Translations under genes and position numbers: made by a program | Source of the DNA: Deltaproteobacteria bacterium | Lineage (GTDB): Bacteria > Desulfobacterota > Syntrophorhabdia > Syntrophorhabdales > Syntrophorhabdaceae | Direction: 5' to 3' | NCBI GenBank assembly: GCA_003506795.1 | Contig: DNYO01000002.1 | Coordinates: 1 to 47,424, forward strand | Length of the DNA stretch: 47,424 bases | Notes under the pieces: generated by a model | What the model was told of the DNA's origin: nothing | The model's database searches: none | What the model saw: only the letters and a program-made list of their open reading frames with translations | Shown here: positions 420 to 20,151 of the stretch, in pieces | How the letters are laid out: each line of letters starts with the position of its first letter | Position numbering within the stretch: the first letter of the stretch is position 1

Positions 420-3400
420 ATGATGTTCAATGGAAAAATATCGGCCCATATATTCTTTATTATTGTATGTATTGCCGCTATTGGAGCGAAGATAGGTCAT
501 GGTCAGGCGATATCGTCGGTAGAGCAGCTGAATTATTGTTCGAATGGCGACGATAATCTCAATGAAATTGGGATAATTAATAATTATATATCACATTATG
601 CGAGCGTTTACTCCATTCCCAAGCGCATTCTTCAATATATTGCCTATGAACAATCAAAATATATTCAAAAGGACGTTTCTATTTCCAAGAGCACATTCAA
701 TAAAATCGGCTTGATGGGCATAAACGTCAAGGATAAGAATGCCCACTATGAGCGGATGTTGTTGGGAGATAAAATATTTAATCCTTTCTTTTCTATGCAT
801 TCAGATGAGTCAGCCTCTCAGTTCGTTATAAAAGTTGAAGAAGAGATTGTAGATATAGAAAGACTAAAGAACGATTTTAAATATAATATCGATATTGCCT
901 GCAGAATAGTTTTAGCCCAAAAATGGCAAGATGGGGCTATTGTTCTTCCAGATTATTCTAACGATATCTGGGGAGATACGATCAGCCATGTTTATAGAGA
1001 AAGCCCGAACTCTCATCAAACAACAATTATCCCCGTTGAATATCTGTATGAGCCCTTTATAGGAATATATTTGAATGTTCCCCTCTTTAGACAGAGGCAC
1101 GAAAATAGTTGGTCATATGATTTGATGAATGGAAGCTGCACCATAGCTGAATATGGTTGCTTCATTTCCTCCCAAGCAATGGTCATGAACTATTTCCATC
1201 AAGATATTACTAACCCGAATGAGTACAATGAATGGCTTAATGATGAATCCGGATACACCAATGGATGCTACTATGTCGCAGGAAAAGCAAACGAATTTCT
1301 TAAAAGCAAAGGAATTACAACATTTACTGAGTATAATGCGAAATTATCGGGAACTCCCGCCGCCGATTGGAAAGATATTGACGATCAACTGTCTATAGGT
1401 CATCCCGCAATTATACAAGTTGACTGCGCCAATAAGACTTGTAGCCATTTCATCGTAATTGTCGGAAAGAACGACATTACAAATGACTACTATATGAATG
1501 ATCCGTATAACTATAACGAACAGCTTTATAGTTATTATCCCAATAAGGGTCTTGAATTCACTGGCCGTGCGATGTTCCTATACGGAACCACTGTCCCATT
1601 GAATGAGGAGGCACAATGTGACAGGAGCAGCAGATATCCCGTTTCGATAACAGGCTGGAATTCTGTACTAGGCGTTGCCGGTGAAGCGATAAACCGAGCC
1701 TATTTCTATACTACTGCTACTGATGCAGCTTTGTACGAAAACTATACTATTTGGGCAAAGTATAGATTGGACATGTCTGGATATTATCAAGTACAAGCAT
1801 TTATTCCGGGAAAAATTGGAAATCGCTCTCAAAATACTAAATATCTTATTAAGCATACAGATATCAATAAATTGCCCGTAGAAGAAGAAGTCATTATTAA
1901 TCAAAATGATTATTACAACCAATGGGTTTCTATTGGCAAACCATTTTATTTCAATGCGGATGATTTAGAAAGCTATGTCAGAGTAAATGATAATACTGGT
2001 GAGGATATATCGCTTGGGCGTCGTATAGTATTTGATGCTATCCGATTTGTGCCGAATAATGAATGCGATTATTCAATCGGTCAGAATACAACGGGGCTGG
2101 AATTATATGCCTTTCAAAATGCATATTCCATCGCGGGTGGCCGAGAAAAACTAGGATGCCCTATTAACTACGTCCAAATTAATGGATTTGTTTCTTTTAA
2201 GAATACGACTTGCCATTATCAGACATTTAGTAATGGTTCAATTCAGTACCATCTGCTCGGGGCCTATCAGTTCCGAGCATTCCCAATAGTAAACCCTCTA
2301 TATAATAAATGGGCCTCTTTGGGCTTTAATATCAACAATCCTCTAGGTTACCCAATAAGTGACCTATCATCCTCACAAATCTCAAGCAGAGGGACCGCTT
2401 ATCAATTTCAGGACTATGAGGGAGGCGCTCTCGAGTATCACAGAAGTGGTTCTTTCAATGGGCAGGTATTTGAAGTCCATGGTGAAATATTTAGTAAATG
2501 GAAGACAATGGGATATGCATCCCACTCTATCGGCTTGCCAATCAGTGATGAGAGAGAGGCGCTTGCGTCTTATAAGGGGACAAGTGGACGAGTAAGTGAT
2601 TTCGAAAACGGACATATTCATTGGCATAGAGATGGAGATCACTCAGGAAAAGCGTTCGAAACACACGGTCCAATTGATACCATATACGTTGCTGCCGGGG
2701 GGACTGGTGATGAGCTTGGATTTCCAATATCTGATCAGTATCTCGGAAACAGTGGATACCCGCGCAACGATTTCGAAGGCGGCTACATTACCACTATAGA
2801 CGGCGTGAACTATCAAATATTTTACAACAGCGGTTCCGTGTTATCTGTCGTTCCGAGTAATAGGGATGTTACTGCGATCGCGAGCACAACGACCTTCGCG
2901 GTCTCGAACACGGGAACGGGAACGATGGGTTGGACCGCTTCGGTTGTATCCGGCTCAGCATGGCTCTCGATCTCATCCGGCGCATCAGGCACCAATAGCG
3001 GGACGATCACGGCCTCGTTCACTTCGAATGGCTCGACAGAGAGCCGAACGGGGACGATCCGGGTCACTGCCACCGGAGCAACGGGGAGTCCCAGGGATGT
3101 AACCGTGACCCAGGCAGGGACGGCAACGCAGCCAATACTCGCAGTAGCTCCAGAAAGCCGTTCCGTATCCTCGCCATCCGGAACAACAACTTTTTCTGTC
3201 TCAAATACCGGAACTGGTACGATGAACTGGACGGCTACGGTTGTATCCGGCTCGGCATGGCTCTCGATCTCTTCCGGTTCATCAGGGACCAATAGCGGGA
3301 CGATCACGGCCTCGTTCACTTCGAATGGATCCACGGAGAGCCGGACGGGGACGATCCGGGTCACTGCCACAGGAGCGACGGGGAGTCCCAAGGACGTAAC

Positions 3401-6400
3401 CGTGACCCAGGCAGGGACGGCCACCCAACCAATATTAGCAGTCACTCCGGACGGCCGCTCAGTATCATCGCTATCCGGAACAACGACCTTCGCGGTCTCG
3501 AACACGGGCACGGGAACGATGGGTTGGACCACTTCGGTCGTATCCGGCTCAGCATGGCTCTCGATCTCTTCCGGTTCATCAGGCACCAACAGCGGGACAA
3601 TCACGGCCTCGTTCATTTCGAATGGCTTGGCAGAGAGCCGAACGGGGACGATCCGGGTCACCGCCACCGGAGCAACGGGGAGTCCCAAAGACGTGACGGT
3701 CACCCAAGCAGGGACGTCCACCCAGCCAATACTCGCAGTAGCTCCAGAAAGCCGTTCCGTATCCTCGCCATCCGGAACAACGACCTTCGCGGTCTCGAAC
3801 ACGGGCACGGGAACGATGGGTTGGACCACTTCGGTTGTATCCGGCTCAGCATGGCTCTCGATCTCTTCCGGTTCATCAGGCACCAACAGCGGGACGATCA
3901 CGGCCTCGTTCACTTCGAATGGCTCGACAGAGAGCCGAACGGGGACGATCCGGGTCACTGCTACCGGAGCGACGGGGAGTCCCAAGGACGTGACGGTCAC
4001 CCAAGCGGGAGTTGTTCAAACTGGAATACTGAGGGTAACACCAGAGTATTGGCCGGCCACTCCCTCGGCTGGGACGGCGACATTTGAAGTTGTTAATGCC
4101 GGCTCAGGAACCATGAATTGGACGGCCTCGGTCGCCTCCGGCTCCTCCTGGCTTTCTATCCAATCAGGATCCTCGGGAACGAATAACGGATTGATCACCG
4201 TGAGCTACTCCTACAACGGAGAACCCGCAGCCCGTACCGGCTCGATTATTGTAACTGCCGCCGGAGCTACTGGAAGCCCGGCGCAGTTGACCGTTTTTCA
4301 GGAATCCGAGTCCGTCGAGGGCAGGTATCTCGATTGGACTCAAAAGACGCCCATGCCGGTCGGCAAAGTCAATGCGGCCTGCGCCGTCGTAGATGGGATT
4401 GTCTACGTTATCGGCGGGAATTCCCGATTTACGGTCTATGCCTATAATCCCGTTGCGGACACGTGGACCCAAAAAGCCGATCTCCCCATGGACGGAATCG
4501 ATGAGGGCGGTGCCGTCAGCATCAACAACAAGATCTACGCTATGGGACCGCCGTCGAATTCCGTCTTTTCCTATGATCCTGCAAAAGATGCTTGGACCTT
4601 CCTCTCGACCATGCCAAATCCGCGTCGCGGTGCTTCGGTTCTCGCCGTCGACGAGAAGATCTATATCATAGGCGGATTCGATTCGGGCTACTCCATTGTG
4701 GAGGAATTCAATCCATTCACGAATGTATGGACGCGGAAAACGGATATGCCGACTGGTCGGGGATTCTCGGCCTCGGCTGCCATCGGAAATGAAATCTATG
4801 TGTACGGCGGTCATGTGGGCGGCAGCTGGGATGTGTTGGAGGCCTATGATACAGCCACCGATACTTGGCAAAGCTTCTCGTTCAAGTTCGACTATCCGAC
4901 GCCGAAATCTCTTGCCTCGGCGATTTCCATCCACGGACGCATGTATGTCATTGGCGGAAGATTCGCAGATGCTTCAGCAATCGTCGACGCATACTATCCC
5001 GATTCGAACGCTTGGAGACAGAAAAATTCTCTATTGGTGCCGCGGATCGGTCACGTTTCGGCTCTTGTGGGCGGGCATATCTACGTCATTGGCGGTTCGG
5101 ATGGCAACAATAATATTGCCTCCGTGGAAGAGGGTATATTTTCCGGGGGGTATGACCAATACCTGATTTCCGGGAACGTGAGCCTGGATGGTCAGGGACT
5201 TGCTGGTGTCATCATCAACGGTCTTCCGGGTGCGCGCACGGATGCGAATGGAAATTATAAAAAGCTCGTCGATTGGGGATGGACGAGTGAGGCGGTCCCG
5301 GCCAAGGCAGGGTATTCCTTCGTTCCTTCCAGCCGGACCCATTTCTATATCCGGGAGGACCAGCCAGGTCAGGACTATACGGCCGAAACAATCGTCTCTG
5401 CGGCTTCCATCACGGTAACAACGCCGAACGGCGGCGAGGTTTGGCCCGGAGGCTCAACCCAGAACATACAGTGGAATTCAACCGGCGAAATTCCAAACGT
5501 GAAGATCGAATATTCATCCGATAATGGAGTGAATTGGACGACCATAGCTGCTGAAACCGCGAATAATGGCGCATTCCCATGGGTACTTCCGAAAATCGCC
5601 TCGAGTCAATGCCTGGTTCGAGTGGTCAATGCTGCAGCGGAGACTCCCTCTGACGTCAGCAACGCTGTTTTTTCCATCACGGCCGAGGAATCGCCGATTA
5701 TCGGGCTATCTCGAACGGCGGTTCATTTCGGCATGATACAGAACGGCGATCCGACCAAACCGCAATCCGTAATAATCAGCAACCAAGGTGCGGGGATTTT
5801 ACAATGGACTGCTTCTTCGTCGTCTGATTGGATCTCAGTCAACCCTGCGAGCGGAACCGGCCCCGGTGTTCTAGAAATCGGAATATCTAGAACCGATCTG
5901 TCACCTGGTTCTTATGAGGGGGCTGTCACGATTTCTTCCCAAGGGGCTTCGAATTCACCTCAAATTATCAATGTGAGCCTTAAAATCATGGCCGAGGACT
6001 CCTCTTCTGTTCCCTTCGGCTCGTTTGACACGCCGCTCAACAACGCCGCCGTGATGAGCAGCATCCCGGTGACCGGATGGGCGCTGGACGATGTCCAGGT
6101 GGAATCAGTCAAGATCTATCGAAATCCCGTCGGTGCGGAGAATCCTCCCAATGGACGCGTTTTCATCGGCGACGGTACCTTCGTGGAAGGGACGCGACCG
6201 GACGTCGAAAAAATCTATCCGAACAGCCCGCTCAACTATCGGGCCGGCTGGGGCTACATGCTGCTGACCAACTTCATGCCCGGCGGCGGCAACGGGACGT
6301 TCACCCTCTATGCCTATGCGACCGACAAGGAGGGCCACGAAGTCTTGATCGGCAGCAAGACGATCACCTGCGACAACCTCCACGCGGTCAAGCCCTTCGG

Positions 6401-7190
6401 CGCCATCGACACGCCGACGCAAGGGGGAGAGATCTCGGGGGCCCTCTACTACAACTTCGGCTGGGCCTTGACGCCGATGCCCAACAAGATTCCGACCGAC
6501 GGCTCGACGCTGGGCGTCTGGATCGACGGGCAGTTGGTCGGACGTCCCAGGTATAACAATTTCCGGGACGATATAGCCGCTCTCTTCCCCGGCTACGCCA
6601 ATTCCCAGGGAGCGGTGGGCGTCTTCGACCTCGATACGACCGCTTATGAGAACGGGATGCATAATATTGCCTGGAGCGTCCGAGACGATGCGGGCAATGA
6701 GGACGGCATCGGAAGCCGTTTCTTCTGGATCCTGAACATCGGGAATCCGGAAGCGACGCCCCAGCGAGGCCGGCTCAAAGTTCTATCGGATCTGGAGGGT
6801 TATACCGACGTCTCGTCCTCGCCGACTATGTTTCGTAAGGGCTATGATAGGAACGCGGCCCCAAGAAAGCTTGCGGCGACCTCCGGACAGGAGCTTCGGC
6901 TTCAAATCCGGGAAGTCGAAAGGATGGAGATCGCATTTGGAGAAGCCGCGGGGAAGAGGCGCAGTGATCAGAACCCGGAGACTGGGGGAGACATCTCGAA
7001 TTGGGAAGGCTATCTCGTCTTTGGTGAAGAGCTGCGAAGCCTGCCCATTGGTTCGACTCTTAATTCTTCCGCCGGCATCTTCTCCTGGTTGCCCGGCCCG
7101 GGCTTTTTGGGGGATTACCGGTTGGTTTTCGTGGAGCGCTCGAACCATGTTCGGCGGAACCTCACGGTGAGGATCGTTCCACGCTCCTAG
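420..7190 (+). CDS. giant secreted multidomain surface/cell-wall-associated protein (2256 aa)
   Basis: Longest ORF in the window (ATG 420, TAG 7188-7190) with a hydrophobic signal-like N-terminus (aa 7-30, ...AIGAKIGHGQA). By-eye motifs in order: SLT-like AYEQS...GLMGIN (~nt 570-930); C39-like Cys/His peptidase pattern EYGC...GHPAIIQVD...SHFIVIVG...YMNDP (~1060-1590); golvesin-like beta-sandwich YQVQAFIP...QWVSIG...DAIRFVP (~1620-2055); LGFP-type repeats LGCPI/LGYPISD/IGLPISD/LGFPISD (~2080-2820); 5 x 99-aa BACON-like repeats (2823-4307); six Kelch blades IYVIGG/IYAMG/IYIIGG/IYVYGG/MYVIGG/IYVIGG (~4317-5145); CarboxypepD_reg-like segment (~5166-5385). Further Ig/BACON-like modules run to the C-terminus. 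The CDS call is firm; the domain names are from memory of family patterns. Confidence 0.85.
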   Translation: MMFNGKISAHIFFIIVCIAAIGAKIGHGQAISSVEQLNYCSNGDDNLNEIGIINNYISHYASVYSIPKRILQYIAYEQSKYIQKDVSISKSTFNKIGLMGINVKDKNAHYERMLLGDKIFNPFFSMHSDESASQFVIKVEEEIVDIERLKNDFKYNIDIACRIVLAQKWQDGAIVLPDYSNDIWGDTISHVYRESPNSHQTTIIPVEYLYEPFIGIYLNVPLFRQRHENSWSYDLMNGSCTIAEYGCFISSQAMVMNYFHQDITNPNEYNEWLNDESGYTNGCYYVAGKANEFLKSKGITTFTEYNAKLSGTPAADWKDIDDQLSIGHPAIIQVDCANKTCSHFIVIVGKNDITNDYYMNDPYNYNEQLYSYYPNKGLEFTGRAMFLYGTTVPLNEEAQCDRSSRYPVSITGWNSVLGVAGEAINRAYFYTTATDAALYENYTIWAKYRLDMSGYYQVQAFIPGKIGNRSQNTKYLIKHTDINKLPVEEEVIINQNDYYNQWVSIGKPFYFNADDLESYVRVNDNTGEDISLGRRIVFDAIRFVPNNECDYSIGQNTTGLELYAFQNAYSIAGGREKLGCPINYVQINGFVSFKNTTCHYQTFSNGSIQYHLLGAYQFRAFPIVNPLYNKWASLGFNINNPLGYPISDLSSSQISSRGTAYQFQDYEGGALEYHRSGSFNGQVFEVHGEIFSKWKTMGYASHSIGLPISDEREALASYKGTSGRVSDFENGHIHWHRDGDHSGKAFETHGPIDTIYVAAGGTGDELGFPISDQYLGNSGYPRNDFEGGYITTIDGVNYQIFYNSGSVLSVVPSNRDVTAIASTTTFAVSNTGTGTMGWTASVVSGSAWLSISSGASGTNSGTITASFTSNGSTESRTGTIRVTATGATGSPRDVTVTQAGTATQPILAVAPESRSVSSPSGTTTFSVSNTGTGTMNWTATVVSGSAWLSISSGSSGTNSGTITASFTSNGSTESRTGTIRVTATGATGSPKDVTVTQAGTATQPILAVTPDGRSVSSLSGTTTFAVSNTGTGTMGWTTSVVSGSAWLSISSGSSGTNSGTITASFISNGLAESRTGTIRVTATGATGSPKDVTVTQAGTSTQPILAVAPESRSVSSPSGTTTFAVSNTGTGTMGWTTSVVSGSAWLSISSGSSGTNSGTITASFTSNGSTESRTGTIRVTATGATGSPKDVTVTQAGVVQTGILRVTPEYWPATPSAGTATFEVVNAGSGTMNWTASVASGSSWLSIQSGSSGTNNGLITVSYSYNGEPAARTGSIIVTAAGATGSPAQLTVFQESESVEGRYLDWTQKTPMPVGKVNAACAVVDGIVYVIGGNSRFTVYAYNPVADTWTQKADLPMDGIDEGGAVSINNKIYAMGPPSNSVFSYDPAKDAWTFLSTMPNPRRGASVLAVDEKIYIIGGFDSGYSIVEEFNPFTNVWTRKTDMPTGRGFSASAAIGNEIYVYGGHVGGSWDVLEAYDTATDTWQSFSFKFDYPTPKSLASAISIHGRMYVIGGRFADASAIVDAYYPDSNAWRQKNSLLVPRIGHVSALVGGHIYVIGGSDGNNNIASVEEGIFSGGYDQYLISGNVSLDGQGLAGVIINGLPGARTDANGNYKKLVDWGWTSEAVPAKAGYSFVPSSRTHFYIREDQPGQDYTAETIVSAASITVTTPNGGEVWPGGSTQNIQWNSTGEIPNVKIEYSSDNGVNWTTIAAETANNGAFPWVLPKIASSQCLVRVVNAAAETPSDVSNAVFSITAEESPIIGLSRTAVHFGMIQNGDPTKPQSVIISNQGAGILQWTASSSSDWISVNPASGTGPGVLEIGISRTDLSPGSYEGAVTISSQGASNSPQIINVSLKIMAEDSSSVPFGSFDTPLNNAAVMSSIPVTGWALDDVQVESVKIYRNPVGAENPPNGRVFIGDGTFVEGTRPDVEKIYPNSPLNYRAGWGYMLLTNFMPGGGNGTFTLYAYATDKEGHEVLIGSKTITCDNLHAVKPFGAIDTPTQGGEISGALYYNFGWALTPMPNKIPTDGSTLGVWIDGQLVGRPRYNNFRDDIAALFPGYANSQGAVGVFDLDTTAYENGMHNIAWSVRDDAGNEDGIGSRFFWILNIGNPEATPQRGRLKVLSDLEGYTDVSSSPTMFRKGYDRNAAPRKLAATSGQELRLQIREVERMEIAFGEAAGKRRSDQNPETGGDISNWEGYLVFGEELRSLPIGSTLNSSAGIFSWLPGPGFLGDYRLVFVERSNHVRRNLTVRIVPRS
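2823..4307 (+). repeat. five tandem 297-bp coding repeats (99-aa BACON-like Ig modules) inside the giant gene
   Basis: Repeat units start at about 2823, 3120, 3417, 3714 and 4011 (period 297 nt). Units 1-4 are near-identical at the DNA level; for example ACGACCTTCGCGGTCTCGAACACGGG recurs. Unit 5 has diverged. The protein motif TTTFAVSNTGTGTMGWT..VVSGSAWLSISSG.SGTNSGTITASF.SNG..ESRTGTIRVTATGATGSP.DVTVTQAG is repeated. Confidence 0.9.
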
Positions 7191-10371: not shown

Positions 10372-12219
10372 ATGAACGCCCCTGCGCCCACACCCCCCTC
10401 CGACCGCACTCCCGGCTTCTTCGATTTCGGCCGCACCCTCCGCCTCCGCCGGGCGCTCCAGATCGTCTGGCGCGGATCGCGCGGCTTCACCCTGGCCGGC
10501 ATCGCCCTCTCGGTCATCCAGGGCATTCTCCCCCTGCTCTCCCTCTATCTCCTCAAGATGGTCGTGGATTCGGTCTCCTCGGGCCTGGCCCTCCCCGCCG
10601 CCCAAAAGACCGCCGCCCTCGGCCGCTCCGGCCTTTGGATCGCCCTCCTGGCCGGCGTCTCGCTTCTCAACGTCGTCTTCCACCTCGTCTCCACCTACGT
10701 CCGCGACGCCCAGAGCCAGTCCATCACCGACTACGTCCACAACCTGATCCATGCCAAGTCCGTGGCCGTGGACCTGGCCTACTACGAGGACCCCCGCTAC
10801 TACGACACCCTGCACCGGGCCCAGCAGGAGGCTCCTTACCGGCCGGCCATGATCGTCTCGGACCTGCTCAAGATGACCCAGTCGGCCATCTCGCTCGCCG
10901 CCGTCACGGTGATCCTCGTCTCGGTCCACTGGGCCATCGCCGTGGTCTTGGTCCTGGCCTCGATCCCCGGCTTCGCCATCAAGGTCCGCTACTCCGGCCG
11001 CTGGAACCGCCGCCTCCGCCGCCGCTCCGCCCCCGAGCGGCTGGCCCTCTATCTCCACCAGGTCCTGACCGGCGACCAATACGCCAAGGAAGTCCGCCTC
11101 TTCGAGCTGGGCGAGGACTTCCGCGCCCGCTACGCCGGCATCCGGGCCCAGCTCCGCGAGGAGCAATTGACCTTCAGCCGCCGCCGCTCCCGGGCCGAGC
11201 TGGCCGCCCAGGCCGTCTCCATCCTGGCCGTGATCGGGGCTCTGGCCTTCACCGCCCGCTCGGCCATCCTGGGGGCCATCACCATCGGCTCCCTGGTGAT
11301 GTACTTCCAAGCCTTTCAGCGCAGCCAGGGCTTCATCCAGGATTTCCTTGGCGGGCTGGCCGGCCTCTACGACGACTCGCTCTTTCTGGGCTACTTCGAC
11401 GAGTTCATGGAGCTTCGCCCCGCAATCTCTGACCCGCCCTCGCCCCGCACCGTCCCCGCCGCCCTCTCCCAGGGCATCGCCTTCGAGGATGTCACGTTCC
11501 GCTATCCCGGGGCCGAGCGTCAGGCCCTAAACGGCGTCTCGCTCACCCTTCTTCCCGGCACCGTCACGGCCCTGGTCGGCCACAACGGCTCCGGCAAGAC
11601 CACCCTGGTCAAGCTTCTCTGCCGCCTCTACGATCCCGAATCAGGCCGAGTCCGTCTCGATGGTGCCGACTACAAGGATTACCGCCCCGCCGACCTGCGC
11701 CGCCTCTTCGGGGTCGTCCCGCAGGACGCCTCCCGCTTCTACCTGACGGTGGCGGAAAACATCGGCCTCTCGGCCCTTGGCAGCGCCCCCGACCCCGCCC
11801 GCGTCGAGCGCGCCGCCCGCCAGGCCGGGGCCGAGGCCTTCATCCACCGCCTTCCCCAGGGGTACGACTCCGTCCTGGGCAAGCTCTTCGAGAAAGGCGA
11901 GGACTTGAGCGTGGGGGAGTGGCAGAAGATCGCCCTGGCCCGGGCCTTCTACCGCGACGCCCCCATCATCGTCCTGGACGAGCCGACCTCGGCTATGGAC
12001 GCCGAAGCTGAGGCCGAGGTCTTCGACGCTTTCAAGGAGCTCATCGCCGGCCGCACCGCCCTCCTCATCAGCCATCGCTTCTCAACGGTGCGCGGGGCGG
12101 ACGTCATCCATGTCCTCGATGCGGGGAAGGTCGTGGAGAGCGGCGATCACGCCGCTCTGATGGCCCTGGGCGGCATCTACGCCCGGATGTTCACTTTACA
12201 GGCGGGGCACTACCGCTAG
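10372..12219 (+). CDS. ABC exporter, fused permease/ATP-binding protein (MsbA/ABCB-like)
   Basis: 615 aa. The N-terminal half is a multi-helix hydrophobic domain. Motifs seen: Walker A GHNGSGKTT, signature LSVGEWQKIALARA, Walker B IIVLDEPTSAMD and H-loop LLISHR. Confidence 0.9.
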   Translation: MNAPAPTPPSDRTPGFFDFGRTLRLRRALQIVWRGSRGFTLAGIALSVIQGILPLLSLYLLKMVVDSVSSGLALPAAQKTAALGRSGLWIALLAGVSLLNVVFHLVSTYVRDAQSQSITDYVHNLIHAKSVAVDLAYYEDPRYYDTLHRAQQEAPYRPAMIVSDLLKMTQSAISLAAVTVILVSVHWAIAVVLVLASIPGFAIKVRYSGRWNRRLRRRSAPERLALYLHQVLTGDQYAKEVRLFELGEDFRARYAGIRAQLREEQLTFSRRRSRAELAAQAVSILAVIGALAFTARSAILGAITIGSLVMYFQAFQRSQGFIQDFLGGLAGLYDDSLFLGYFDEFMELRPAISDPPSPRTVPAALSQGIAFEDVTFRYPGAERQALNGVSLTLLPGTVTALVGHNGSGKTTLVKLLCRLYDPESGRVRLDGADYKDYRPADLRRLFGVVPQDASRFYLTVAENIGLSALGSAPDPARVERAARQAGAEAFIHRLPQGYDSVLGKLFEKGEDLSVGEWQKIALARAFYRDAPIIVLDEPTSAMDAEAEAEVFDAFKELIAGRTALLISHRFSTVRGADVIHVLDAGKVVESGDHAALMALGGIYARMFTLQAGHYR

Positions 12220-13327
12220 GCTTGCTCTTCTTCTTCCGACCAAAGAGAATGTGCCCGGCTTTCGCGGCGTCGCCCTTGACATCCTGAAGCGTGTCGAGAA
12301 ACTCCTTCATATCTGGGTCCTCGACGTTCATCCGCTTCAGGAAGTCCTGGACCAGGGCGATCCCGCAAAACAGAAACAGTCCTAAAAATCCTGCTATCAG
12401 CGCGGTCTTTCTGACCTGGGGGCTCACCCTGCTCCTCGGCGGCACCGCTCTCTGGATGACCACGATCGGGTCCTTGGTCTCCTGCTCCTGGATCTTGGCC
12501 AGCTCCAACTGCTTATTGAGAGTGATGTAAATCTCTTCCTGCAGCCGCACGTTCCGCTTCAGCCGATCCTGTTCGATCTGCAGCTCCGGGGTGGCGATCT
12601 TGCGGTTCCTCTTCTCGAACACAGAACTGGCCGTCTCGGCTTGATTCAGGGGGGTCTTGGTCTCCTTAAGCTGGTTTTCGATGAACTCACGATTCGTCTT
12701 GGCCTTGGAGTTCAGCTCGTTCTGGCTAAAAAGGACCAGCTCATCCAGCAGGAGATTGGCAGCCGCCGCCGCGATGACTGGATCCGAATCGGAGAACGAC
12801 AAGCTCATGACCGTCGATGCGGCCCGGCCTGATACGGCTCTTGGGGCGACGACCTTCAACTTCTTGCGGATCGCCTCTAATCCGATCGCCTTTCGCTCGG
12901 CCTCGGTCTCGCCCTTAATCTTGAGAGACTCCATCAGGGTCAGAGGCTTCTCGCCCGCCGGTGCAGGGAGCGGCTTGCTGGACGCGGTATCGAGGAAACC
13001 CCGGCTCTGCAGGATCTGGCTGTAGTATTCGATGAGAAACTGGGCGTCCGCCGCGGGATTAGTCGCTCTACCGACGCCGAAAGACTCGTCGATCTTGGAT
13101 GACATGCCCTGCGCCCGCGACGGCAGGAAGCTCGCCGTTGCCTCGAAAACCGGCGTCTGGAGTTTGGCGTAGACGATAGCCAGGGTGCATAGGCCTAGCG
13201 TCCCCAGGATGATGAGCCACCGCCGCTTCAACAGGACATTGACATAACGGAAGAGGGAGACAGACTCATTCTCTTCCTCAGGCGGCCCATCCCACCCTGG
13301 CTTCTCCATGTTCTGGCCGGGGATCAT
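12191..13327 (-). CDS. polysaccharide co-polymerase / chain-length determinant (Wzz/GumC-like, no kinase domain)
   Basis: Wzz-type N-terminus (LFRYVNVLLKRRWLIILGTLGL…PVFEATASFLPS), a long coiled-coil middle, a GNVR-like VVIQRAVPPRSRVSP and a C-terminal TM helix. The track ORF extends to 13483. ATG 13327 gives an ATGA overlap with the upstream wza-like stop, so I prefer it as the start. Confidence 0.8.
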   Translation of the reverse strand: MIPGQNMEKPGWDGPPEEENESVSLFRYVNVLLKRRWLIILGTLGLCTLAIVYAKLQTPVFEATASFLPSRAQGMSSKIDESFGVGRATNPAADAQFLIEYYSQILQSRGFLDTASSKPLPAPAGEKPLTLMESLKIKGETEAERKAIGLEAIRKKLKVVAPRAVSGRAASTVMSLSFSDSDPVIAAAAANLLLDELVLFSQNELNSKAKTNREFIENQLKETKTPLNQAETASSVFEKRNRKIATPELQIEQDRLKRNVRLQEEIYITLNKQLELAKIQEQETKDPIVVIQRAVPPRSRVSPQVRKTALIAGFLGLFLFCGIALVQDFLKRMNVEDPDMKEFLDTLQDVKGDAAKAGHILFGRKKKSKPSGSAPPVK

Positions 13328-15960
13328 TTCCCGCTCGCCTCGGGCTTGGCCGTGACCACAATAATAGCGCCGGGCGGGATAACGGGATTGAACGAGGTGT
13401 TCTCCTTCTTCTCCATCATCCCCCCATCCGGCATATGGATTACGACCTTGTCCAGGTCGGCGTTCTTGGCATATCCGCCGCAAAGGTTCAGGTAATAACC
13501 CAGCTTGGCCCCCCTGATGTACTGGATGACAGCCGGCTTCAGGACCGCGCCCTTGACCTCGACGATCTCGATCCTCGTCGCTTCTCCCTGGAAAGGCACC
13601 TCGATGGTGCTTCCCGCCGAGATGACGGGACTCGGCCGGAACAGCCCCCCACCAACCTTACGGGTCGTATTGTTGGCCGAATAGAGGATGACATTGGCCG
13701 GATCGGCTGTCTCCATGTATCCGCCGCAGAGCTCGATATAGTCCCGGACCTTCATTCCGGCCTTATGCTGTAGGATGAGGGGCTTGCGGACCGCACCCCT
13801 CACTTCCACGGTTCCTGGATTGCTGGGGATAAAGATCTGGTCGCCGTCTTTCAGGATGAGGTCATATTTGCTGCCCGGGTTCTTGAGGGCCTGGACCAGA
13901 TCCAGAGTGATCTCGTAAGACCGAGGGCCTTCTCCGGGGACCATGGCGACGATATTTCGATTCCTGGTGATGGTCGCCCCTTCGGGCAGGGCTTCGGGTT
14001 TCAGTCCCTCGGCTCTCTGGATCAGGCTCGAGAGCCGCTCCTCCCGGTTTTCAAGGGAGTAGTTGCCCGGGTACTTCACCTCGCCCTGCAGCGACACGAC
14101 CGGCAGCGGCTCCCAGCCCGGCAAATTGCGGACTGCGACCCGGTCGAAGGCTTTGATGGGGGTCTTCTTGTCTTGGGGGATGACGGCATAGCCAAGCTCT
14201 ACAGGCACCCTGATGGTCGATTCGCCCTGCACGGCCGAATCGGCTCCATCTCCAAGCCCCTCCGACCTTGCAACCACAGCTTCCGGCTTATAGGCATCGG
14301 CCCGCAATCCTCCGGCCAGGACGATAAGATCTTCGACGGTCAGGTTCTCCGTGAAATCATACGTGCCCGGTCTGTTGATCAATCCGCCGATCTCGACCTT
14401 GGACTTGACCATCATCTGTTCGTTGGCATAGACGCGGATGAGGTCCTCTTCCGTCAAGGCCATATCGGTCGCCTTGTCGCCGTCGATCAGCTTGCCGAGA
14501 TTGAAGGGGATGAGCTTCTTGCCTACCGGCCCTTGGACCTTGCGGATCACGTGGGCCATGTCCTGGTAAACCGTCCTGCGGTAATCGGCGTCCTGGAACC
14601 CGCCGTGGGCGAACACCACATCGAAGAGGGTCATGTTCTTGGCCAGGACATAGCGCCCCGGTTCTTTAACATGGCCTTCCAGGGAAATATATTTATCCTT
14701 ACCCGTCATCCCGAAGGTCGAATAGATCGAAACCTGATCCATCTCCTTCAGGACGAAATTCTTCTCATCCGTTCCGACGAAAGAGAAAATTCCGGGCTTG
14801 TCTTCCTTGTAGAGCTCCTCCAAGGTGAACGTTGTCAGCTTCTTGGAGAAGTCCGACTCCGTCCTGACTAGATCAGCCCGCTCCAGATAGACATATTCCC
14901 TCAATCCCTCGGCTTTTTCGATGAGATCCTTGAGGGTCATGCCAGGCTTGAATTCATAGTTGCCCGGCCTGGTGATGCCGTCCCCCTGGATGGTGACGAC
15001 GCTCTTCCTGACTTGGATATTGCCGAGAACCGTGATTTCATCCTGATCGACCAGGGGATAGTTCTGTTTGGCATCCCGATAGAGGGCGTCGAGATTTAAA
15101 TCTAGAAATACCTCGCCCCGGTTGGTCTCGAATCTTTTGAGCTGGGAACGCATAAGAAAGGCATCCGAGGTGAATCCCCCGGCGAAAGCCACAAGCTCTT
15201 TGATCCCTTCGCTGCCGATCAGCTCGTAGTTCATCGGCCGGCGGACTTCACCCATAATCGTGGCGGATTTCTTCTTCAGAGGGACAATGACATAATCCCC
15301 AGCCTGAAGGCGGGACTTCTTCACATCCAGCTTGCCGGTGAGAAGAAAGTCATAGATGTCGATTGTATCGATCCGGCCATCGGCCCGCCGGATCTTTATG
15401 TCACGAAGGGATCCCGATTCCTTCACTCCACCGGAATTATGAAGGAGATTGATGATTGTCGCCGTACCCGAGGTTAGAGTGTAGGCGCCTGGATTCTGGA
15501 CTTCACCGACCACATAGAGCAGCAGCTTCCTGATCTTGCCTAATTTGACATCAACGAAGGCGGTGCTTTGAGTTGGGTTTTCGACATTGATATACGATGA
15601 GTGGATGAGCGAAAGCGCTTGAGTTACCCGATCTTTCAGCTCTTTGAGGCTGACTCCATTAGTGGAGATTCTGCCGCCCTCCTCGGGCAACTCCAGGTAT
15701 CCTTCCTCCGAGATAGTCAGGTTGTTGGTGGAGTTCAGGGCACCCCATAAAGTCAGAACAACCTCATCTCCAGGGCTAAGGAGGTATTGCTCGTCAACCG
15801 GGCCTTCAGAGATTGGGCCGGCAGTGGTTTTAAAGATATCGTATCCGAATGATATTGCCTTTGCCGGGGTGGATGTCTGCCCTTCTGCGGTTCCTACAAG
15901 CGCAGTGCAAAAGAACAACGAGAGACAAAGGTAAATAACTGCCTTAATTGGATTTCCCAT
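13324..15960 (-). CDS. polysaccharide export protein, Wza-like (Poly_export domain + multiple SLBB domains)
   Basis: Poly_export motif YLLSPGDEVVLTLWG…EEGYLELPEEGGRISTNGVSLKEL, followed by many repeated beta-grasp (SLBB-like) units. The preferred start is ATG 15960 (MGNPIKAVIYLCLSLFFCTALVGTAEG, signal-like) with AAGGAAG upstream. The track ORF starts at TTG 16023. Confidence 0.85.
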   Translation of the reverse strand: MGNPIKAVIYLCLSLFFCTALVGTAEGQTSTPAKAISFGYDIFKTTAGPISEGPVDEQYLLSPGDEVVLTLWGALNSTNNLTISEEGYLELPEEGGRISTNGVSLKELKDRVTQALSLIHSSYINVENPTQSTAFVDVKLGKIRKLLLYVVGEVQNPGAYTLTSGTATIINLLHNSGGVKESGSLRDIKIRRADGRIDTIDIYDFLLTGKLDVKKSRLQAGDYVIVPLKKKSATIMGEVRRPMNYELIGSEGIKELVAFAGGFTSDAFLMRSQLKRFETNRGEVFLDLNLDALYRDAKQNYPLVDQDEITVLGNIQVRKSVVTIQGDGITRPGNYEFKPGMTLKDLIEKAEGLREYVYLERADLVRTESDFSKKLTTFTLEELYKEDKPGIFSFVGTDEKNFVLKEMDQVSIYSTFGMTGKDKYISLEGHVKEPGRYVLAKNMTLFDVVFAHGGFQDADYRRTVYQDMAHVIRKVQGPVGKKLIPFNLGKLIDGDKATDMALTEEDLIRVYANEQMMVKSKVEIGGLINRPGTYDFTENLTVEDLIVLAGGLRADAYKPEAVVARSEGLGDGADSAVQGESTIRVPVELGYAVIPQDKKTPIKAFDRVAVRNLPGWEPLPVVSLQGEVKYPGNYSLENREERLSSLIQRAEGLKPEALPEGATITRNRNIVAMVPGEGPRSYEITLDLVQALKNPGSKYDLILKDGDQIFIPSNPGTVEVRGAVRKPLILQHKAGMKVRDYIELCGGYMETADPANVILYSANNTTRKVGGGLFRPSPVISAGSTIEVPFQGEATRIEIVEVKGAVLKPAVIQYIRGAKLGYYLNLCGGYAKNADLDKVVIHMPDGGMMEKKENTSFNPVIPPGAIIVVTAKPEASGK

Positions 15961-16065
15961 GAGCACTTCCTTAGGAGTTCCCAAAATCAACGAAATATTA
16001 GTATAGGGATTGTGCCTTGTCAAACTTTGGTTGATTACCCCTTTTTCTCTTTTTCCTTTCCCCCC

Positions 16066-16093
16066 TTGACAACTTTTTGGACAAGTATAGAAT
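16066..16093 (+). promoter_or_regulatory. sigma70-like promoter candidate for the plus-strand sugar operon
   Basis: TTGACA (16066-16071), a 16-nt spacer, then TAGAAT (16088-16093). It lies in the divergent intergenic region between the wza-like gene and the legB-like gene. This is consensus matching only. Confidence 0.3.
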
Positions 16094-16311
16094 TGGGCCT
16101 GCGCTTACCAAGGCGCATAAAGGGTGAAGTGGATGGGTTTTGCTGGGGAAATTCGCGGTGCTGTTCCTTTTCCTTCAGCAGGTTTCCAGATAATCCTTTA
16201 TAGCCGCCGGGCTTTGCCCTAGAATGAGTACCGCTCAGAAGTCGTTATGCGTTAATAAGCTTTTACGAAGAAACTGAGAGTTGAAAGGGAAGAGTCGGAA
16301 AAAGCCCCGAG

Positions 16312-16323
16312 GGCGGTAGCCTG
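16312..16323 (+). promoter_or_regulatory. ops/JUMPStart-like element GGCGGTAGCCTG in the operon leader
   Basis: It matches the enterobacterial ops consensus GGCGGTAGnnTG at all specified positions. It is on the non-template strand for rightward transcription, 66 nt upstream of ATG 16389. A preceding G also matches the JUMPStart context (GGGCGGTAGC). Confidence 0.45.
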
Positions 16324-16388
16324 CCCAGGAATGATAGGAGAAGGATGTATTAGGCTATGAAATAAATTTAGAAGAGGACAATTTGAAA

Positions 16389-17363
16389 ATGGGAAAGATA
16401 TTAATCACCGGGGCTGGAGGCTTCATCGGCTCTCATCTAGCCGAAAGGTGTGTCGAGCTTGGTTATTCGGTTCGCGCTTATGTTCACTATAATTCGAAAA
16501 ACGGTTGGGGCTGGCTCGACAGTTCGTCATCGAAATCGGACATGGAGATTGTAGCAGGGGACATTCGGGACTACGATTCAGTTTTAAAAGCGATCAACGG
16601 TTGCGACACGGTTTTCCACTTGGCTGCTTTAATAGGGATTCCGTATTCCTACACATCCCCATTGGCCTATCTTCGAATAAATATCGAGGGAACCTATAAC
16701 ATTCTCGAGAGCTCCAAGAATTTCCACCTCGAGTCCGTTTTGATTACATCGACAAGCGAAACTTACGGCAGCGCCCAAACCGTTCCCATCAATGAGAGCC
16801 ACCCTAGCGTTGGGCAATCGCCTTACTCGGCTTCGAAGATAGCGGCGGATCAATTGGCCATCAGTTACCATCGATCTTTTGGACTCCCGGTTAAAATTGT
16901 TCGACCTTTTAACACTTTCGGTCCGAGGCAGTCGGCACGAGCCGTCATCCCGACCATTATCACGCAGCTTCTGGACGGCCGACAGGAACTCCAGTTGGGG
17001 AATACCGATCCAACCCGCGATTTAACCTTTGTTCGGGACACCGTCGAAGGATTCATCGAAATCAGTAAGTGTCCAAGCCTATTCGGAGAGGCTACCAATA
17101 TCGGAATGAACGAGGAGACATCGATCGGCGATCTGGCACATTTAATTGCCGAGCTGATGGGGCTCCCGTGCAAAATCACCACGGATGGCGAACGTATTCG
17201 TCCGGTTCGAAGCGAAGTCGATCGTCTGCGGGCTGACAACTCCAAATTGATGGAAAAGACGCCCTGGCGGCCCCGCTACGGCTTGCAGGCGGGGCTGCTG
17301 GAAACGATCTCCTGGTTCCGAGAGCATGGCCGAGACTATAAGACGAATATCTACAATGTCTGA
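16389..17363 (+). CDS. legB: NAD-dependent NDP-sugar 4,6-dehydratase, LegB-like (extended SDR)
   Basis: Rossmann motif ILITGAGGFIGSHL, YNSKNGWGWLD motif as recalled for LegB-type dehydratases, catalytic YSASK. It is the first gene of the NulO operon. TTG 16383 is an alternative start. Confidence 0.7.
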   Translation: MGKILITGAGGFIGSHLAERCVELGYSVRAYVHYNSKNGWGWLDSSSSKSDMEIVAGDIRDYDSVLKAINGCDTVFHLAALIGIPYSYTSPLAYLRINIEGTYNILESSKNFHLESVLITSTSETYGSAQTVPINESHPSVGQSPYSASKIAADQLAISYHRSFGLPVKIVRPFNTFGPRQSARAVIPTIITQLLDGRQELQLGNTDPTRDLTFVRDTVEGFIEISKCPSLFGEATNIGMNEETSIGDLAHLIAELMGLPCKITTDGERIRPVRSEVDRLRADNSKLMEKTPWRPRYGLQAGLLETISWFREHGRDYKTNIYNV

Positions 17364-18516
17364 ATTCATTCCTCTTTCCGTTCCCAGGATCAATGGGAAC
17401 GAGTGGACCTATATCAAGGAATGCCTGGACTCTGAGTGGGTTTCCTCTGTCGGGTCGTATGTCGAGCGATTTGAAGCCGACATCCGCCGCTTCACCGGAG
17501 CCTCCTACGCCGTGGCCTGCGTCAACGGTACTGCGGCGCTCCACGTGGCCCTGCGCTTGGCCGGCGTCTCAGCTGGAGACGAGGTCCTGGTTCCAACACT
17601 GACCTTCATCGCCCCAGTGAATACCATCGCCTACCTTGGCGCCCATCCCGTGTTCATGGACGCGGACGCCTATTACAATATCGACCCGGAAAAAACCCTA
17701 CAATTCCTCAGGGACGAAACAGTCCAGCGGGGCCATGCGGCCTACAATAAAGCCACTGGCCGGCGGGTGGCGGCCCTCCTCCCGGTCCACGTTTTCGGGA
17801 ACGCCTGCCGGCTCGAGGAGTTGGCTGAGGTTTGCCGCGAGCGCGGCATCGCTATCGTTGAGGATGCGACCGAAGGATTGGGCACGTTCTATCGGGCCGG
17901 CACCTCGGCCAACAAACATGTCGGGACAATCGGCATGCTGGGCTGCCTTTCCTTCAACGGCAATAAAATCATCACGACAGGCGGCGGCGGCATGATCCTC
18001 ACGGAGGATCCCGGGCTGGCAGCCAGGGCGAAATATTTGTCCACCCAAGCTAAGGATGACGCGGTTCAATTCATTCACGGCGATATCGGCTACAACTACC
18101 GTCTTACTAATATTCAAGCGGCCCTCGGTGTGGCCCAACTGGAACAACTGCCGGGATTCTTGGAAGTCAAAAAAGAGAACTTCGAGCTTTACAATCGCGC
18201 GATCGAGGATATAACGGGCCTCTGTCTCGCTTCCCCGCCCTCCTACGCGGACAACAACCATTGGATGTATACCCTTCAGGTTGAGGCGAGCCGATATGGC
18301 CGGGATCGCTTCCAGCTCCTGGCCGACCTAGAGGCTGCGCAGGTTCAAACGAGGCCCGTCTGGATGCCGAATCATTTGCAAAAGCCGTACCGCGACTGCC
18401 AAAGCTACAAGGTTAAGAACGCAGTCAAACTTTGGGACGTCACCCTGAACCTCCCTTGCAGCACCGGACTGACGCCCGACCAGGTGGAGGCGGTTGTGGG
18501 ATTGTTACGACAATGA
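17356..18516 (+). CDS. legC: DegT/DnrJ/EryC1-family PLP aminotransferase, LegC-like
   Basis: N-terminus MSEFIPLSVPRINGNEWTYIKECLDSEWVSSVGSYVERFE is typical of LegC/PseC-type aminotransferases. ATG 17356 overlaps the previous stop (ATGTCTGA). Confidence 0.75.
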   Translation: MSEFIPLSVPRINGNEWTYIKECLDSEWVSSVGSYVERFEADIRRFTGASYAVACVNGTAALHVALRLAGVSAGDEVLVPTLTFIAPVNTIAYLGAHPVFMDADAYYNIDPEKTLQFLRDETVQRGHAAYNKATGRRVAALLPVHVFGNACRLEELAEVCRERGIAIVEDATEGLGTFYRAGTSANKHVGTIGMLGCLSFNGNKIITTGGGGMILTEDPGLAARAKYLSTQAKDDAVQFIHGDIGYNYRLTNIQAALGVAQLEQLPGFLEVKKENFELYNRAIEDITGLCLASPPSYADNNHWMYTLQVEASRYGRDRFQLLADLEAAQVQTRPVWMPNHLQKPYRDCQSYKVKNAVKLWDVTLNLPCSTGLTPDQVEAVVGLLRQ

Positions 18517-19145
18517 AAAAGCTCGTTCTGGTCGGCGGCGGGGGACACGCCAAGGTCCTGGCGGGAGAGTTGATGAGGCTCGGCGAATACGGGCTTCTCG
18601 GGTACACGGCACTCCACGACGCGGGCCCTCTCCTAGGCCTGCCTTTTCTTGGCGGGGACGAAATCCTGGCTGGGATTATCCGCAGCCATCCCGGCTGCGC
18701 GGCGGCTCTGGGAATTGGAACCGTGAACACTTCGGAGTTCCGGAAAGCGGTCTTTTTGAGTCTGCGGGACCAGGGATTTGAGTTTCCCGCCATTATTTCT
18801 CCGCATGCCGTCGTGGGAGAGGAAACGGCCTTAGGCGATGCGACGGTGGTCTTTGCTGGCGCCGTTGTCAATCCGGGCGTCCGTTTCGGCCGGGGTGTGA
18901 TCGTCAATACAAACGCCTCTGTCGATCATGACGGCCAGATCGGTGATTTCGTCCATATCGCCCCCGGGGCGACTCTGAGCGGAGGCGTCAGCGTCGGGGA
19001 CTTCAGTTTCATCGGCACCGGGGCCAGTCTCATCCAAGGCGTTCGAATCGGGTCGAAATGCCTGATTGGGGCCGGCGCCGTGGTAACGAAAGATTGCCTC
19101 GAGGCCGGTACCTATGTTGGTGTCCCGGCGCGGCGGAAAGGCTGA
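18513..19145 (+). CDS. legH: NeuD/PglD-family hexapeptide N-acetyltransferase, LegH-like
   Basis: MKKLVLVGGGGHAKV N-terminus followed by a left-handed beta-helix hexapeptide region. ATGA overlap with the legC-like stop. Confidence 0.75.
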   Translation: MKKLVLVGGGGHAKVLAGELMRLGEYGLLGYTALHDAGPLLGLPFLGGDEILAGIIRSHPGCAAALGIGTVNTSEFRKAVFLSLRDQGFEFPAIISPHAVVGEETALGDATVVFAGAVVNPGVRFGRGVIVNTNASVDHDGQIGDFVHIAPGATLSGGVSVGDFSFIGTGASLIQGVRIGSKCLIGAGAVVTKDCLEAGTYVGVPARRKG

Positions 19146-19155
19146 AGGACGGATC

Positions 19156-20151
19156 ATGGGCATCTTCATCATTGCTGAAGCGGGGGTCAATCACAACGGC
19201 TCCCTGGCTATAGCCAAGAAAATGGTCGATGCCGCCAAGGCCTGTGGCGCCGATGCCGTCAAGTTCCAGGCCTTTCGGGCCGATCGGCTCGTTTCCCGGA
19301 CGGCCCCGAAAGCGGCCTATCAAAAAAAGGCCTGCGGAGCCGATGAAACCCAGCTGGAGATGCTGCGCCGGCTCGAGCTGACGCCGGCCGGGCATCAATC
19401 CCTGTTTCGGCATTGCCTCGCCCGCCGCATCCTCTACCTGGCTTCGCCGTTCGACCAGGCCAGCGCCGACGATCTCGCGGCCTTGGGCATGAAGGCCTTC
19501 AAGGTCCCTTCCGGGGAGATCACCAACCATCCGTTCCTGGCTCATGTCGCCCTCCTGGGCCGGCCGATCTACCTTTCGACGGGGATGTCGACCCTGGGCG
19601 AGATCGAAGCCGCCCTGGGCGTGATCCGGGAAAACGGGAAGCCGCCCGTGACGCTGCTCCATTGCGTCACCGAATACCCCGCGCCCTATCAAGAGATCAA
19701 CCTGAAGGCCATGGAGACGATGCGGCGGGCCTTCGGCCTGCCGGTGGGATATTCCGACCATACCGACGGGATCGAAATCTCCATCGCGGCGGCCGCCCTG
19801 GGCGCCGTCGTGATCGAGAAGCATTTCACCCTGGACAGGGGCATGGCGGGCCCTGATCACCGTTCTTCCCTGGAACCGGCGGCACTGGCCGCCATGATCA
19901 AGGCGATCCGGCATGTCGAGTCCGCGCTCGGCGACGGGATCAAAGGCCCGGCACCTTGCGAGATCAGGAACATATCCGCCGTTCGGAAAAGCATCGTGGC
20001 CGCGCGCGATATCCGGGCCGGCGAGGTTCTGCGGCCGGAGCTTCTGGCCGTCAAGCGGCCCGCCGGCGGGATCGGCCCGGAGCGTTGGCGGGATATCATC
20101 GGCCGCAAGGCCGTCCGGAGCTTCCAACGCGACGAGATGATCGAGATATGA
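19156..20151 (+). CDS. legI: NeuB-family nonulosonic acid synthase, LegI-like
   Basis: FIIAEAGVNHNGS motif, TIM-barrel NeuB pattern and a C-terminal SAF-like segment (…VAARDIRAGEVL…). Confidence 0.8.
   Translation: MGIFIIAEAGVNHNGSLAIAKKMVDAAKACGADAVKFQAFRADRLVSRTAPKAAYQKKACGADETQLEMLRRLELTPAGHQSLFRHCLARRILYLASPFDQASADDLAALGMKAFKVPSGEITNHPFLAHVALLGRPIYLSTGMSTLGEIEAALGVIRENGKPPVTLLHCVTEYPAPYQEINLKAMETMRRAFGLPVGYSDHTDGIEISIAAAALGAVVIEKHFTLDRGMAGPDHRSSLEPAALAAMIKAIRHVESALGDGIKGPAPCEIRNISAVRKSIVAARDIRAGEVLRPELLAVKRPAGGIGPERWRDIIGRKAVRSFQRDEMIEI

Follow-up and report, generated by a model that had tools for sequence, protein, structure and literature searches.

The question raised by this locus is whether a 12-nucleotide motif in the leader of a long surface-polysaccharide operon is a genuine regulatory element of the ops type and, if so, what kind of factor might read it in a bacterium whose genes do not look enterobacterial. 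The window, by which we mean the whole stretch of 47,424 nucleotides that was analyzed, contains the motif GGCGGTAGCCTG between a promoter-like site and the first gene of the operon, with the gene for a Wza-like exporter on the other, divergent side. A sequence-only reading had described the motif as an ops/JUMPStart-like antitermination element and had suggested that a specialized NusG-family regulator may exist in this lineage, and the analysis presented here followed up this proposal.

An ops-type core in the leader of a legionaminic-acid operon

The features of the window that bear on this question are as follows.

12191-13327, after the Wza-like gene and divergent from the leg operon: Wzz (Pfam)
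13324-15960, minus strand: Wza-like exporter with 7 SLBB domains, divergent from the operon (Pfam)
16066-16093, plus strand: promoter-like site TTGACA-16 nt-TAGAAT, agreeing with the consensus at 11 of 12 positions
16100-16388, plus strand: predicted 5′ leader, delimited by the promoter-like site and legB
16306-16327, plus strand: extended element, with the lineage consensus cCuAAgGGCGGUAGCcUGuc and the window version CCCGAGGGCGGTAGCCTGCCCA; match of model R1 (described below)
16311-16326, plus strand: small hairpin GGGCGG-TAGC-CTGCCC, of which the inner mini-hairpin alone recurs in relatives
16312-16323, plus strand: core of the ops type, GGCGGTAGCCTG, an exact match to GGCGGTAGNNTG located on the non-template strand within the leader of the leg operon
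16389-17363, plus strand: legB, NAD-dependent 4,6-dehydratase, first gene of the operon (Pfam; homologs named LegB)
16389-46512, plus strand: same-strand polysaccharide genes, ~30 kb (Pfam)

The core meets the 12-nt ops consensus GGCGGTAGnnTG at 10 of its 10 specified positions, as the sequence-only reading had stated, and a search of both strands of the window for GGCGGTAGNNTG returned one exact match, that at 16312-16323 (+). Dinucleotide-preserving shuffles gave a chance rate for GGCGGTAGNNTG of 0.04 per window, with a match in 4 of 100 shuffles, which agrees in order of magnitude with the 0.09 that had been estimated beforehand for both strands. When one mismatch was tolerated, the window contained three matches compared to 2.4 expected by chance, and there was thus no excess of near matches.

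The site is oriented with the operon on the plus strand and lies between legB and a promoter-like site that is conserved in the related locus L016. Its placement on the non-template strand ahead of the first gene was as claimed, although the gap between the end of the motif and the legB ATG (16389) measures 65 nt instead of the 66 nt given; an in-frame TTG is present at 16383. The promoter-like TTGACA/TAGAAT that had been noticed upstream was also found, ~210 nt before the element, and transcription is predicted to start near 16100, which would place the element at about +212. None of the RNA sequencing runs searched contained the locus. A second promoter-like site within the leader, TTTATA-17 nt-TAGAAT at 16197-16225 (+), is not conserved in L016. 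Inspection argued against a sigma-54 promoter, in which the GG and the GC would be one base farther apart than they are here; the GC also lacks conservation.

The operon had been claimed to exceed 20 kb in one direction; it runs for ~30 kb on the plus strand, from 16389 to ~46512. It starts with a legionaminic-acid set, comprising a LegB-type dehydratase, a DegT aminotransferase, an acetyltransferase, NeuB, a 2-epimerase, a CBS-nucleotidyltransferase, a GFO oxidoreductase, a CMP-transferase and an SDR, continues with a flippase, glycosyltransferases, Wzy, further glycosyltransferases and an initiating sugar transferase, and ends with a decarboxylase and an aldolase. The operons targeted through ops specify LPS, capsule and other surface polysaccharides, conjugation functions or toxins, and a legionaminic-acid and Wzx/Wzy polysaccharide operon fits this target class. 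Consensus scans for internal promoters and intrinsic terminators within the operon gave counts no higher than in shuffles. Two stretches inside the operon, 37677-39341 (1.66 kb) and 42240-42790 (0.55 kb), may represent gene remnants or internal regulatory regions, and the 91- and 98-aa ORFs in the first of them have no Pfam match.

Related loci and the lineage of the window

An identical contig is present in metagenomes of methanogenic hydrocarbon-degrading enrichment cultures, and nine contigs that encode an identical LegB protein have leaders that are 100% identical, so that these copies say nothing about conservation. The homologs of LegB level off at ~70% identity over several phyla, which makes this protein unusable for locating orthologous leaders. 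The homologs of the Wza-like protein are graded, from 81% to 45% identity, and keep the divergent layout; orthologous leaders were found with this protein as the anchor. A metagenome scan with a Wza alignment added 60 loci to the first Wza loci, and the set of relatives consists of 73 non-redundant related loci (709 kb), which are polysaccharide loci only.

Few homologs of the Wza-like protein carry a lineage name, these being from Candidatus Aminicenantes (56% identity) and Thermoanaerobaculia (51%), and a Wza search of genome contigs gave a sole match, of 56% identity, on a 2.3-kb contig. The names attached to homologs of the ABC exporter were uninformative, levelling off at 50-55% identity. 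A homolog of the ABC exporter of the window, with 74% identity, lies on a 74-kb contig (L081) that is syntenic with the Wza-bearing loci L018 and L089 over an MTHFR-like gene, ABC, LptD, ugd and Wzz, and the ATP synthase c, LpxD and Ugd proteins of this contig cluster at ≥90% identity with proteins of a MAG named 'Candidatus Aminicenantes bacterium'. On the basis of this synteny, together with the named homologs and clusters, we assign the window with good confidence to Candidatus Aminicenantes (candidate phylum OP8; NCBI Candidatus Aminicenantota) and not to the Proteobacteria. The earlier impression that the gene content is not enterobacterial was confirmed, with the relatives pointing to Candidatus Aminicenantes.

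Conservation of the element in diverged relatives

The closest Wza loci, L016, L017 and L018, have the same layout as the window, with Wza and a divergent polysaccharide operon, and the motif occurs in the divergent leader of each of the three, oriented as the operon. Over the 709 kb of relatives, GGCGGTAGCNTR was observed 20 times compared to 0.75 expected with independent bases, an excess of ~27-fold, and weight-matrix matches of at least 19 bits numbered 21 against a shuffle mean of 0.25 (73 loci, 709 kb). All 20 copies of GGCGGTAGCNTR are intergenic and co-oriented with the next gene. The 9-mer GGCGGTAGC was found 22 times in 619 kb; in 18 of these it is embedded in (A)A(G/C)-GGCGGTAGC-(C/T/A)-T-(G/A) followed by A/T-rich sequence, and the other four lie in GC-rich coding sequence and have other flanks. 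Exact matches to the consensus GGCGGTAGnnTG are present in the leaders of relatives at nine sites besides that of the window.

An alignment of 19 sites from relatives showed that positions 1-5, 8, 9 and 11 are invariant, that T6 and A7 have one change each, and that position 10 varies among C, T and A and position 12 between G and A. At the level of sequence, this pattern of fixed and free positions matches the E. coli ops consensus. The flanks of the sites, on the other hand, fall into at least nine unrelated families, which indicates that the core itself is under selection. The distance between a site and the next gene ranges from 2 to 407 nt, with the exception of L029, where the next long gene lies 853 nt downstream. 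This next gene is typically a sugar-nucleotide gene (for a Gmd-like dehydratase, an epimerase or Ugd) or one that encodes a flippase or glycosyltransferase.

Two copies of the element are present in each of L016, L018, L052 and L073. The L016 copies, at 2912 and 2741 on the minus strand, read GGCGGCAGCCTG and GGCGGTGGCCTG (T6 to C, A7 to G) and are ~170 nt apart, the second one lying 11 nt before a flippase gene. In L018, 2 nt separate the second copy (3962) from an ATG at which a typical DegT N-terminus (MNIPLLDLK) begins. The DegT gene of L018 is called in fragments, at 2809-4522, probably owing to frameshifts.

A model built from the 19 sites of the relatives with the window left out (R1) found the extended element at 16306-16327 as the only significant match on both strands of the 47-kb window (18 bits, E = 1e-4). 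Among loci that were fetched later, R1 identified exactly one site in L089, with 18.5 bits and 28 nt before a flippase gene in the Wza-divergent leader, and no site in L087, which is from Thermoanaerobaculia, or in L090, a more distant locus. A second GGCGGTAG in the window (TAATGGCGGTAGATAC, 42777-42788, minus strand), where it overlaps the start region of a class IV aminotransferase gene on the opposite strand, was rejected as probably due to chance, its model E-value being 0.3 and the CNTR extension missing.

The distribution of the element is patchy, as it does not occur in the related polysaccharide leaders of L040, L092 and L087. The ABC exporter of L092 is 86% identical to that of the window and is followed by ugd. 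The element was also not found in the leaders of one sublineage (L030, L031, L032, L043, L053 and L057), where a tRNA gene and then the gene for threonyl-tRNA synthetase lie divergent from Wza and there is no polysaccharide operon. In L087, toxin-antitoxin genes (PemK, HicA/HicB, RelE with HTH, and BrnT) are located among the glycosyltransferase genes at 14649-19759.

These data bear directly on the simplest alternative, namely that the site is a chance match in one window. It is a single 12-mer that was chosen by eye among many motifs, and a few of the shuffles (4 of 100) contain one as well. Nevertheless, the conservation data refute this explanation, which we regard as extremely improbable: the motif recurs in relatives at ~27 times expectation with its orientation and position fixed, the model that excludes the window recovers the site at E = 1e-4, and the match in L089 was prospective. 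A 12-mer that is not conserved in the leaders of relatives would have spoken against the sequence-only reading, and we found the opposite, in that GGCGGTAGC recurs and is always co-oriented. Recurrence with position and orientation kept in diverged relatives points to a real regulatory element, and these comparisons strongly support the conclusion that it is a genuine, conserved one of the ops type.

Comparison with ops and JUMPStart

In E. coli K-12, the waaQ and rfb leaders contain ...GGGGCGGTAGCGTGC... at 75-85 nt before the first gene, and the counterpart in the window is ...GAGGGCGGTAGCCTGC.... The 12-mer of the window differs from the waaQ/rfb ops GGCGGTAGCGTG at one free position only, and the preceding G and following C of the E. 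coli sequence are also found in the window. As in E. coli, the site is on the non-template strand and precedes a long surface-polysaccharide operon, here in what is predicted to be its leader, and it sometimes occurs in two copies. A mini-hairpin with G5 and T6 in the loop is predicted as well, and the lack of a reader gene adjoining the target is a feature shared with E. coli rfaH. The two differ in the host, which is assigned to Candidatus Aminicenantes instead of the Proteobacteria, and no RfaH was found in the window or in the element-bearing loci. In addition, E. coli ops has no counterpart of the 5′ AA(G/C) of the Aminicenantes element, in which position 12 is G or A and position 9 is always C, and the distance from transcription start to element is about +212 (predicted) in the window compared to about +46 in waaQ.

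The label 'JUMPStart-like' did not hold. The Rfam family RF01707 (JUMPstart) had no match in the whole window at the gathering score (35 bits), in the window leader at E ≤ 10, or in 8 related loci at E ≤ 1, whereas the positive controls scored 60 bits for the E. coli rfb leader and 55 bits for the waaQ leader. The failure of RF01707 here while the controls score shows that the Aminicenantes element is an ops core without the JUMPStart 5′ stem-loop. The Rfam searches of the window leader and of the 8 related loci were negative at both gathering and permissive thresholds. JUMPStart, a 39-bp gamma-proteobacterial sequence, resembles the Aminicenantes element in being located just upstream of a polysaccharide cluster, at the boundary between a conserved leader and variable genes, and its 3′ end is the ops core, as in the Aminicenantes element. 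However, the 5′ half of JUMPStart, with its stem-loop and second GGTAGC, is absent from the latter.

The predicted fold of the leader RNA is unremarkable (z = +0.87). A structured leader RNA, riboswitch or terminator was rejected on the basis of this value, together with the lack of a terminator-like site and of any structure common to the sites. Across 20 sites, no flanking structure was shared (mean z -0.6), and the mini-hairpin G1:Y10, G2:C9, C3:G8 with the loop GGTA was predicted with a paired fraction of 0.70-0.95 at motif positions 1-3 and 8-10. This intrinsic mini-hairpin is the sole recurrent structure, which is consistent with recognition of DNA in the transcription bubble. In the RfaH-ops complex (PDB 5OND, 6C6S), the geometry of the mini-hairpin presents G5 and T6 to RfaH.

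The minimum for an elemental pause is a G at -10, a pyrimidine at -1 and a G at +1. With T11 of the motif taken as the -1 base, G2 would be the -10 base of this consensus and position 12 the +1 base. The fit of the motif to the pause consensus raises the possibility of a signal that needs no factor, either an intrinsic pause, for instance one serving translation coupling, or a junction for recombination by cassette exchange. Sequences resembling ops are reported to pause diverse polymerases (PMC7593976). The junction version has some appeal from the comparison of the window with L016, whose leaders are 76% identical, including an identical 28-nt promoter-like site, since this homology stops just 3′ of the element and the gene cassettes beyond it differ. 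A bare pause, however, for which the bases at -10, -1 and +1 suffice, would leave nine consecutive near-invariant bases unexplained, and recombination would need long flanking homology and not a 12-mer, whereas the flanks are unrelated between classes of loci. We therefore consider a factor-independent signal to be quite improbable.

A search for NusG-family readers

The observation that the window encodes no NusG/RfaH paralog was borne out, as no NusG-family ORF was detected in it either with Pfam (main ORFs) or with phmmer using E. coli RfaH and NusG as queries (ORFs of at least 70 aa). Similarly, phmmer found none in the element-bearing relatives (ORFs of at least 70 aa, ~0.7 Mb of related loci). 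The sole NusG-family ORF in the ~0.7 Mb, at 3358-3969 (+) of L062, belongs to the UpxY family (NF033644, 118.7 bits, cutoff 100). This is a distant locus with 30% Wza identity, in which the UpxY gene lies 1.1 kb downstream of the Wza homolog and the element is absent; its detection shows that the search method is able to find such genes. Given that no NusG paralog is located near the element-bearing loci, the reader would act in trans, like E. coli RfaH.

The published work divides these factors in a similar way: the gene for RfaH, a factor that requires ops, forms a cistron of its own away from the operons that it controls, whereas the genes for LoaP, TaA and UpxY adjoin their target operons (PMC7819879, PMC7593976). 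The unlinked arrangement found here fits the RfaH type. Matches to the RfaH model are reported from 23 of 117 phyla (PMC7593976), and most phyla are predicted to have NusG C-terminal domains that switch fold (PMC9247905). A detailed understanding of how a NusG paralog is recruited by sequence exists for E. coli RfaH only (PMC7593976). We found no paper that connects Acidobacteria or Aminicenantes with ops, RfaH, NusG or UpxY.

The UpxY/UpxZ system of Bacteroides, LoaP of Firmicutes and TaA of Myxococcus resemble the system proposed here in the processive anti-termination of long operons via the leader, and their targets are polysaccharide or polyketide operons. They differ in having the paralog gene within the target operon or adjoining it, whereas none is nearby in the present loci and a DNA-type signal is conserved. 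The element system is not of the target-adjacent NusG-paralog type. To our knowledge, no ops-type DNA signal has been described for the UpxY, LoaP and TaA systems.

RAYT-like genes beside the element

In two sublineages, the element adjoins genes of another kind.

L025 8566-9525 and L026 8562-9587, minus strand: class-1 RAYT-like gene (NF047646, PF08299)
L026 8384-8491: (A)ATAGAC array, also present in the leaders of L025, L027, L048, L054 and L076
L073 1393-2133, L077 about 1997-2743 and L078 1762-2427, minus strand: class-3 RAYT-like gene (Y1_Tnp, 1e-12; NF047646, 55-57 bits)

All six class-1 loci (L025, L026, L027, L048, L054 and L076) have a RAYT-like gene between Wza and the element. The encoded proteins, of 320-340 aa, combine an N-terminal RAYT-like domain in degenerate form (NF047646, 47 bits, below cutoff) with a C-terminal DnaA-type HTH (PF08299), and the loss of the HUH motif together with the gain of the HTH makes them look like domesticated transposases that have been retained in a constant place. 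Directly 5′ of the element, the class-1 leaders contain at least five (A)ATAGAC repeats with a spacing of 9 nt or a multiple of 9, and this array beside the gene for an HTH protein may be a binding array. The proteins of the three class-3 loci are 222-247 aa long and homologous to those of class 1 (phmmer, 1e-9); their genes lie 122-200 nt downstream of the element and, in L073, between two direct element copies (2268 and 1204). Most loci have no RAYT-like gene, and none is present in the window, L016, L017, L018, L081 or L089.

These neighbors suggest the possibility that the element is real and is read by a DNA- or RNA-binding regulator outside the NusG family, for which the top candidate would be a domesticated RAYT-like protein with or without the DnaA-type HTH. 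The RAYT-like genes are directly beside the element in 6 of 6 class-1 and 3 of 3 class-3 loci and encode homologous proteins, the element contains GTAG, and RAYTs recognize single-stranded hairpins headed by GTAG. The domesticated appearance of the class-1 proteins, the ATAGAC array with its 9-nt period, and the lineage-specific 5′ AA and relaxed position 12, both unlike E. coli ops, are also in line with such a reader. However, the window and the five loci named above do without a RAYT-like gene, no palindrome common to the sites follows the GTAG, and the RAYT-like genes are not flanked by inverted copies. Moreover, the identity with ops over nine bases in a matching genomic setting would be a coincidence. 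We consider a reader outside the NusG family to be unlikely, and its specific version, in which domesticated RAYT-like proteins and not a NusG paralog would read the element on the exposed non-template strand or in the leader DNA, to be very doubtful. If this version were true, a transposase-derived transcription regulator would have converged on the same 9-base core as ops. The RAYT-like genes beside the element may reveal an unrecognized class of regulator or a preference for a target site.

The same genes might instead mark the element as a REP-like or mobile-element remnant tied to Y1 transposases, with no role in expression. REP sequences consist of a GTAG head and an imperfect palindrome, and they occur in many copies and in both orientations, with inverted pairs typically around the RAYT gene. 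The GTAG within the element, the Y1_Tnp/RAYT-like genes that adjoin it in nine loci, and the L073 gene between two direct copies are in line with such a remnant. On the other hand, the element lacks a palindromic body, no convincing inverted repeats or inverted element copies were seen around the RAYT-like genes, and the sites are confined to polysaccharide leaders, where all are co-oriented with the downstream gene, with zero copies at gene 3′ ends in the 709 kb. We judge a remnant of this kind to be highly improbable.

A proposed model for recruitment of an RfaH-type factor

The explanation that we favor, and that on balance we think probable, is that an RfaH-type factor is recruited at a paused polymerase via the non-template strand and makes transcription of the 30-kb operon processively resistant to termination. 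The sequence, its placement and orientation, its strong conservation across diverged leaders and the lack of a NusG paralog gene nearby are observations, whereas the pause, the folding of the hairpin, the nature of the reader and the anti-termination itself we infer from the E. coli RfaH/ops system. Transcription would begin at the conserved TTGACA/TAGAAT promoter, and ~210 nt on, the polymerase would meet GGCGGTAGCCTG, whose G (-10), T (-1) and purine (+1) fit an elemental pause. Within the opened bubble, GGCGGTAGCCTG could fold into a mini-hairpin (G2:C9/C3:G8) that leaves G5 and T6 exposed. A NusG paralog of the RfaH kind, whose gene would lie elsewhere in the genome, could then read the exposed bases and bind the polymerase, shutting out the housekeeping NusG, so that transcription, and perhaps translation too, would be carried through the ~30-kb polysaccharide operon.

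Several findings count against recruitment of an RfaH-type factor. Each of the L016 copies is altered at a base of critical importance to E. coli ops, close to half of the sites have an A at position 12, directly after the pause site, and the conserved 5′ AA(G/C) is foreign to E. coli ops. The leaders of L040, L092 and L087 lack the element, and RAYT-like genes adjoin it in two sublineages. According to published analyses, 95% of RfaH is proteobacterial, and the residues through which it contacts ops are assigned to a late stage of its evolution (PMC7593976, PMC7819879).

Nonetheless, an RfaH-type factor acting in trans far from the Proteobacteria, with the E. coli ops code unchanged, appears more likely than a RAYT-like reader. 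An unchanged ops code would mean either that factor and signal were transferred together between phyla or that ops recognition is older than has been proposed. The occurrence of an ops-identical nine-base core in capsule-type leaders of an uncultured phylum thus provides a testable case for an ops code beyond the Proteobacteria, and the model predicts that genomes bearing the element hold an unlinked, probably autoinhibited, RfaH-like factor. The element also marks the 5′ boundary of variable polysaccharide clusters in Aminicenantes MAGs, and a model such as R1 could be used to map the regulon.

Other features of the window

Farther upstream of the leader, the window encodes an ABC exporter, two AAA_14/DUF4143 ATPases and a 2256-aa BACON/Kelch protein. 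This last protein (420-7190, plus strand) contains a C39-like peptidase domain, LGFP, BACON and Kelch repeats, and the first 2 kb of its gene have a G+C content of 36-38% compared to 52-61% farther along. At the other end of the window there is a gene for an ISL3-family transposase (46683-47387, plus strand). The longest assembly of this contig on record is 47,580 nt, and the fact that the contig never extends much past the window suggests a repeat that breaks the assembly.
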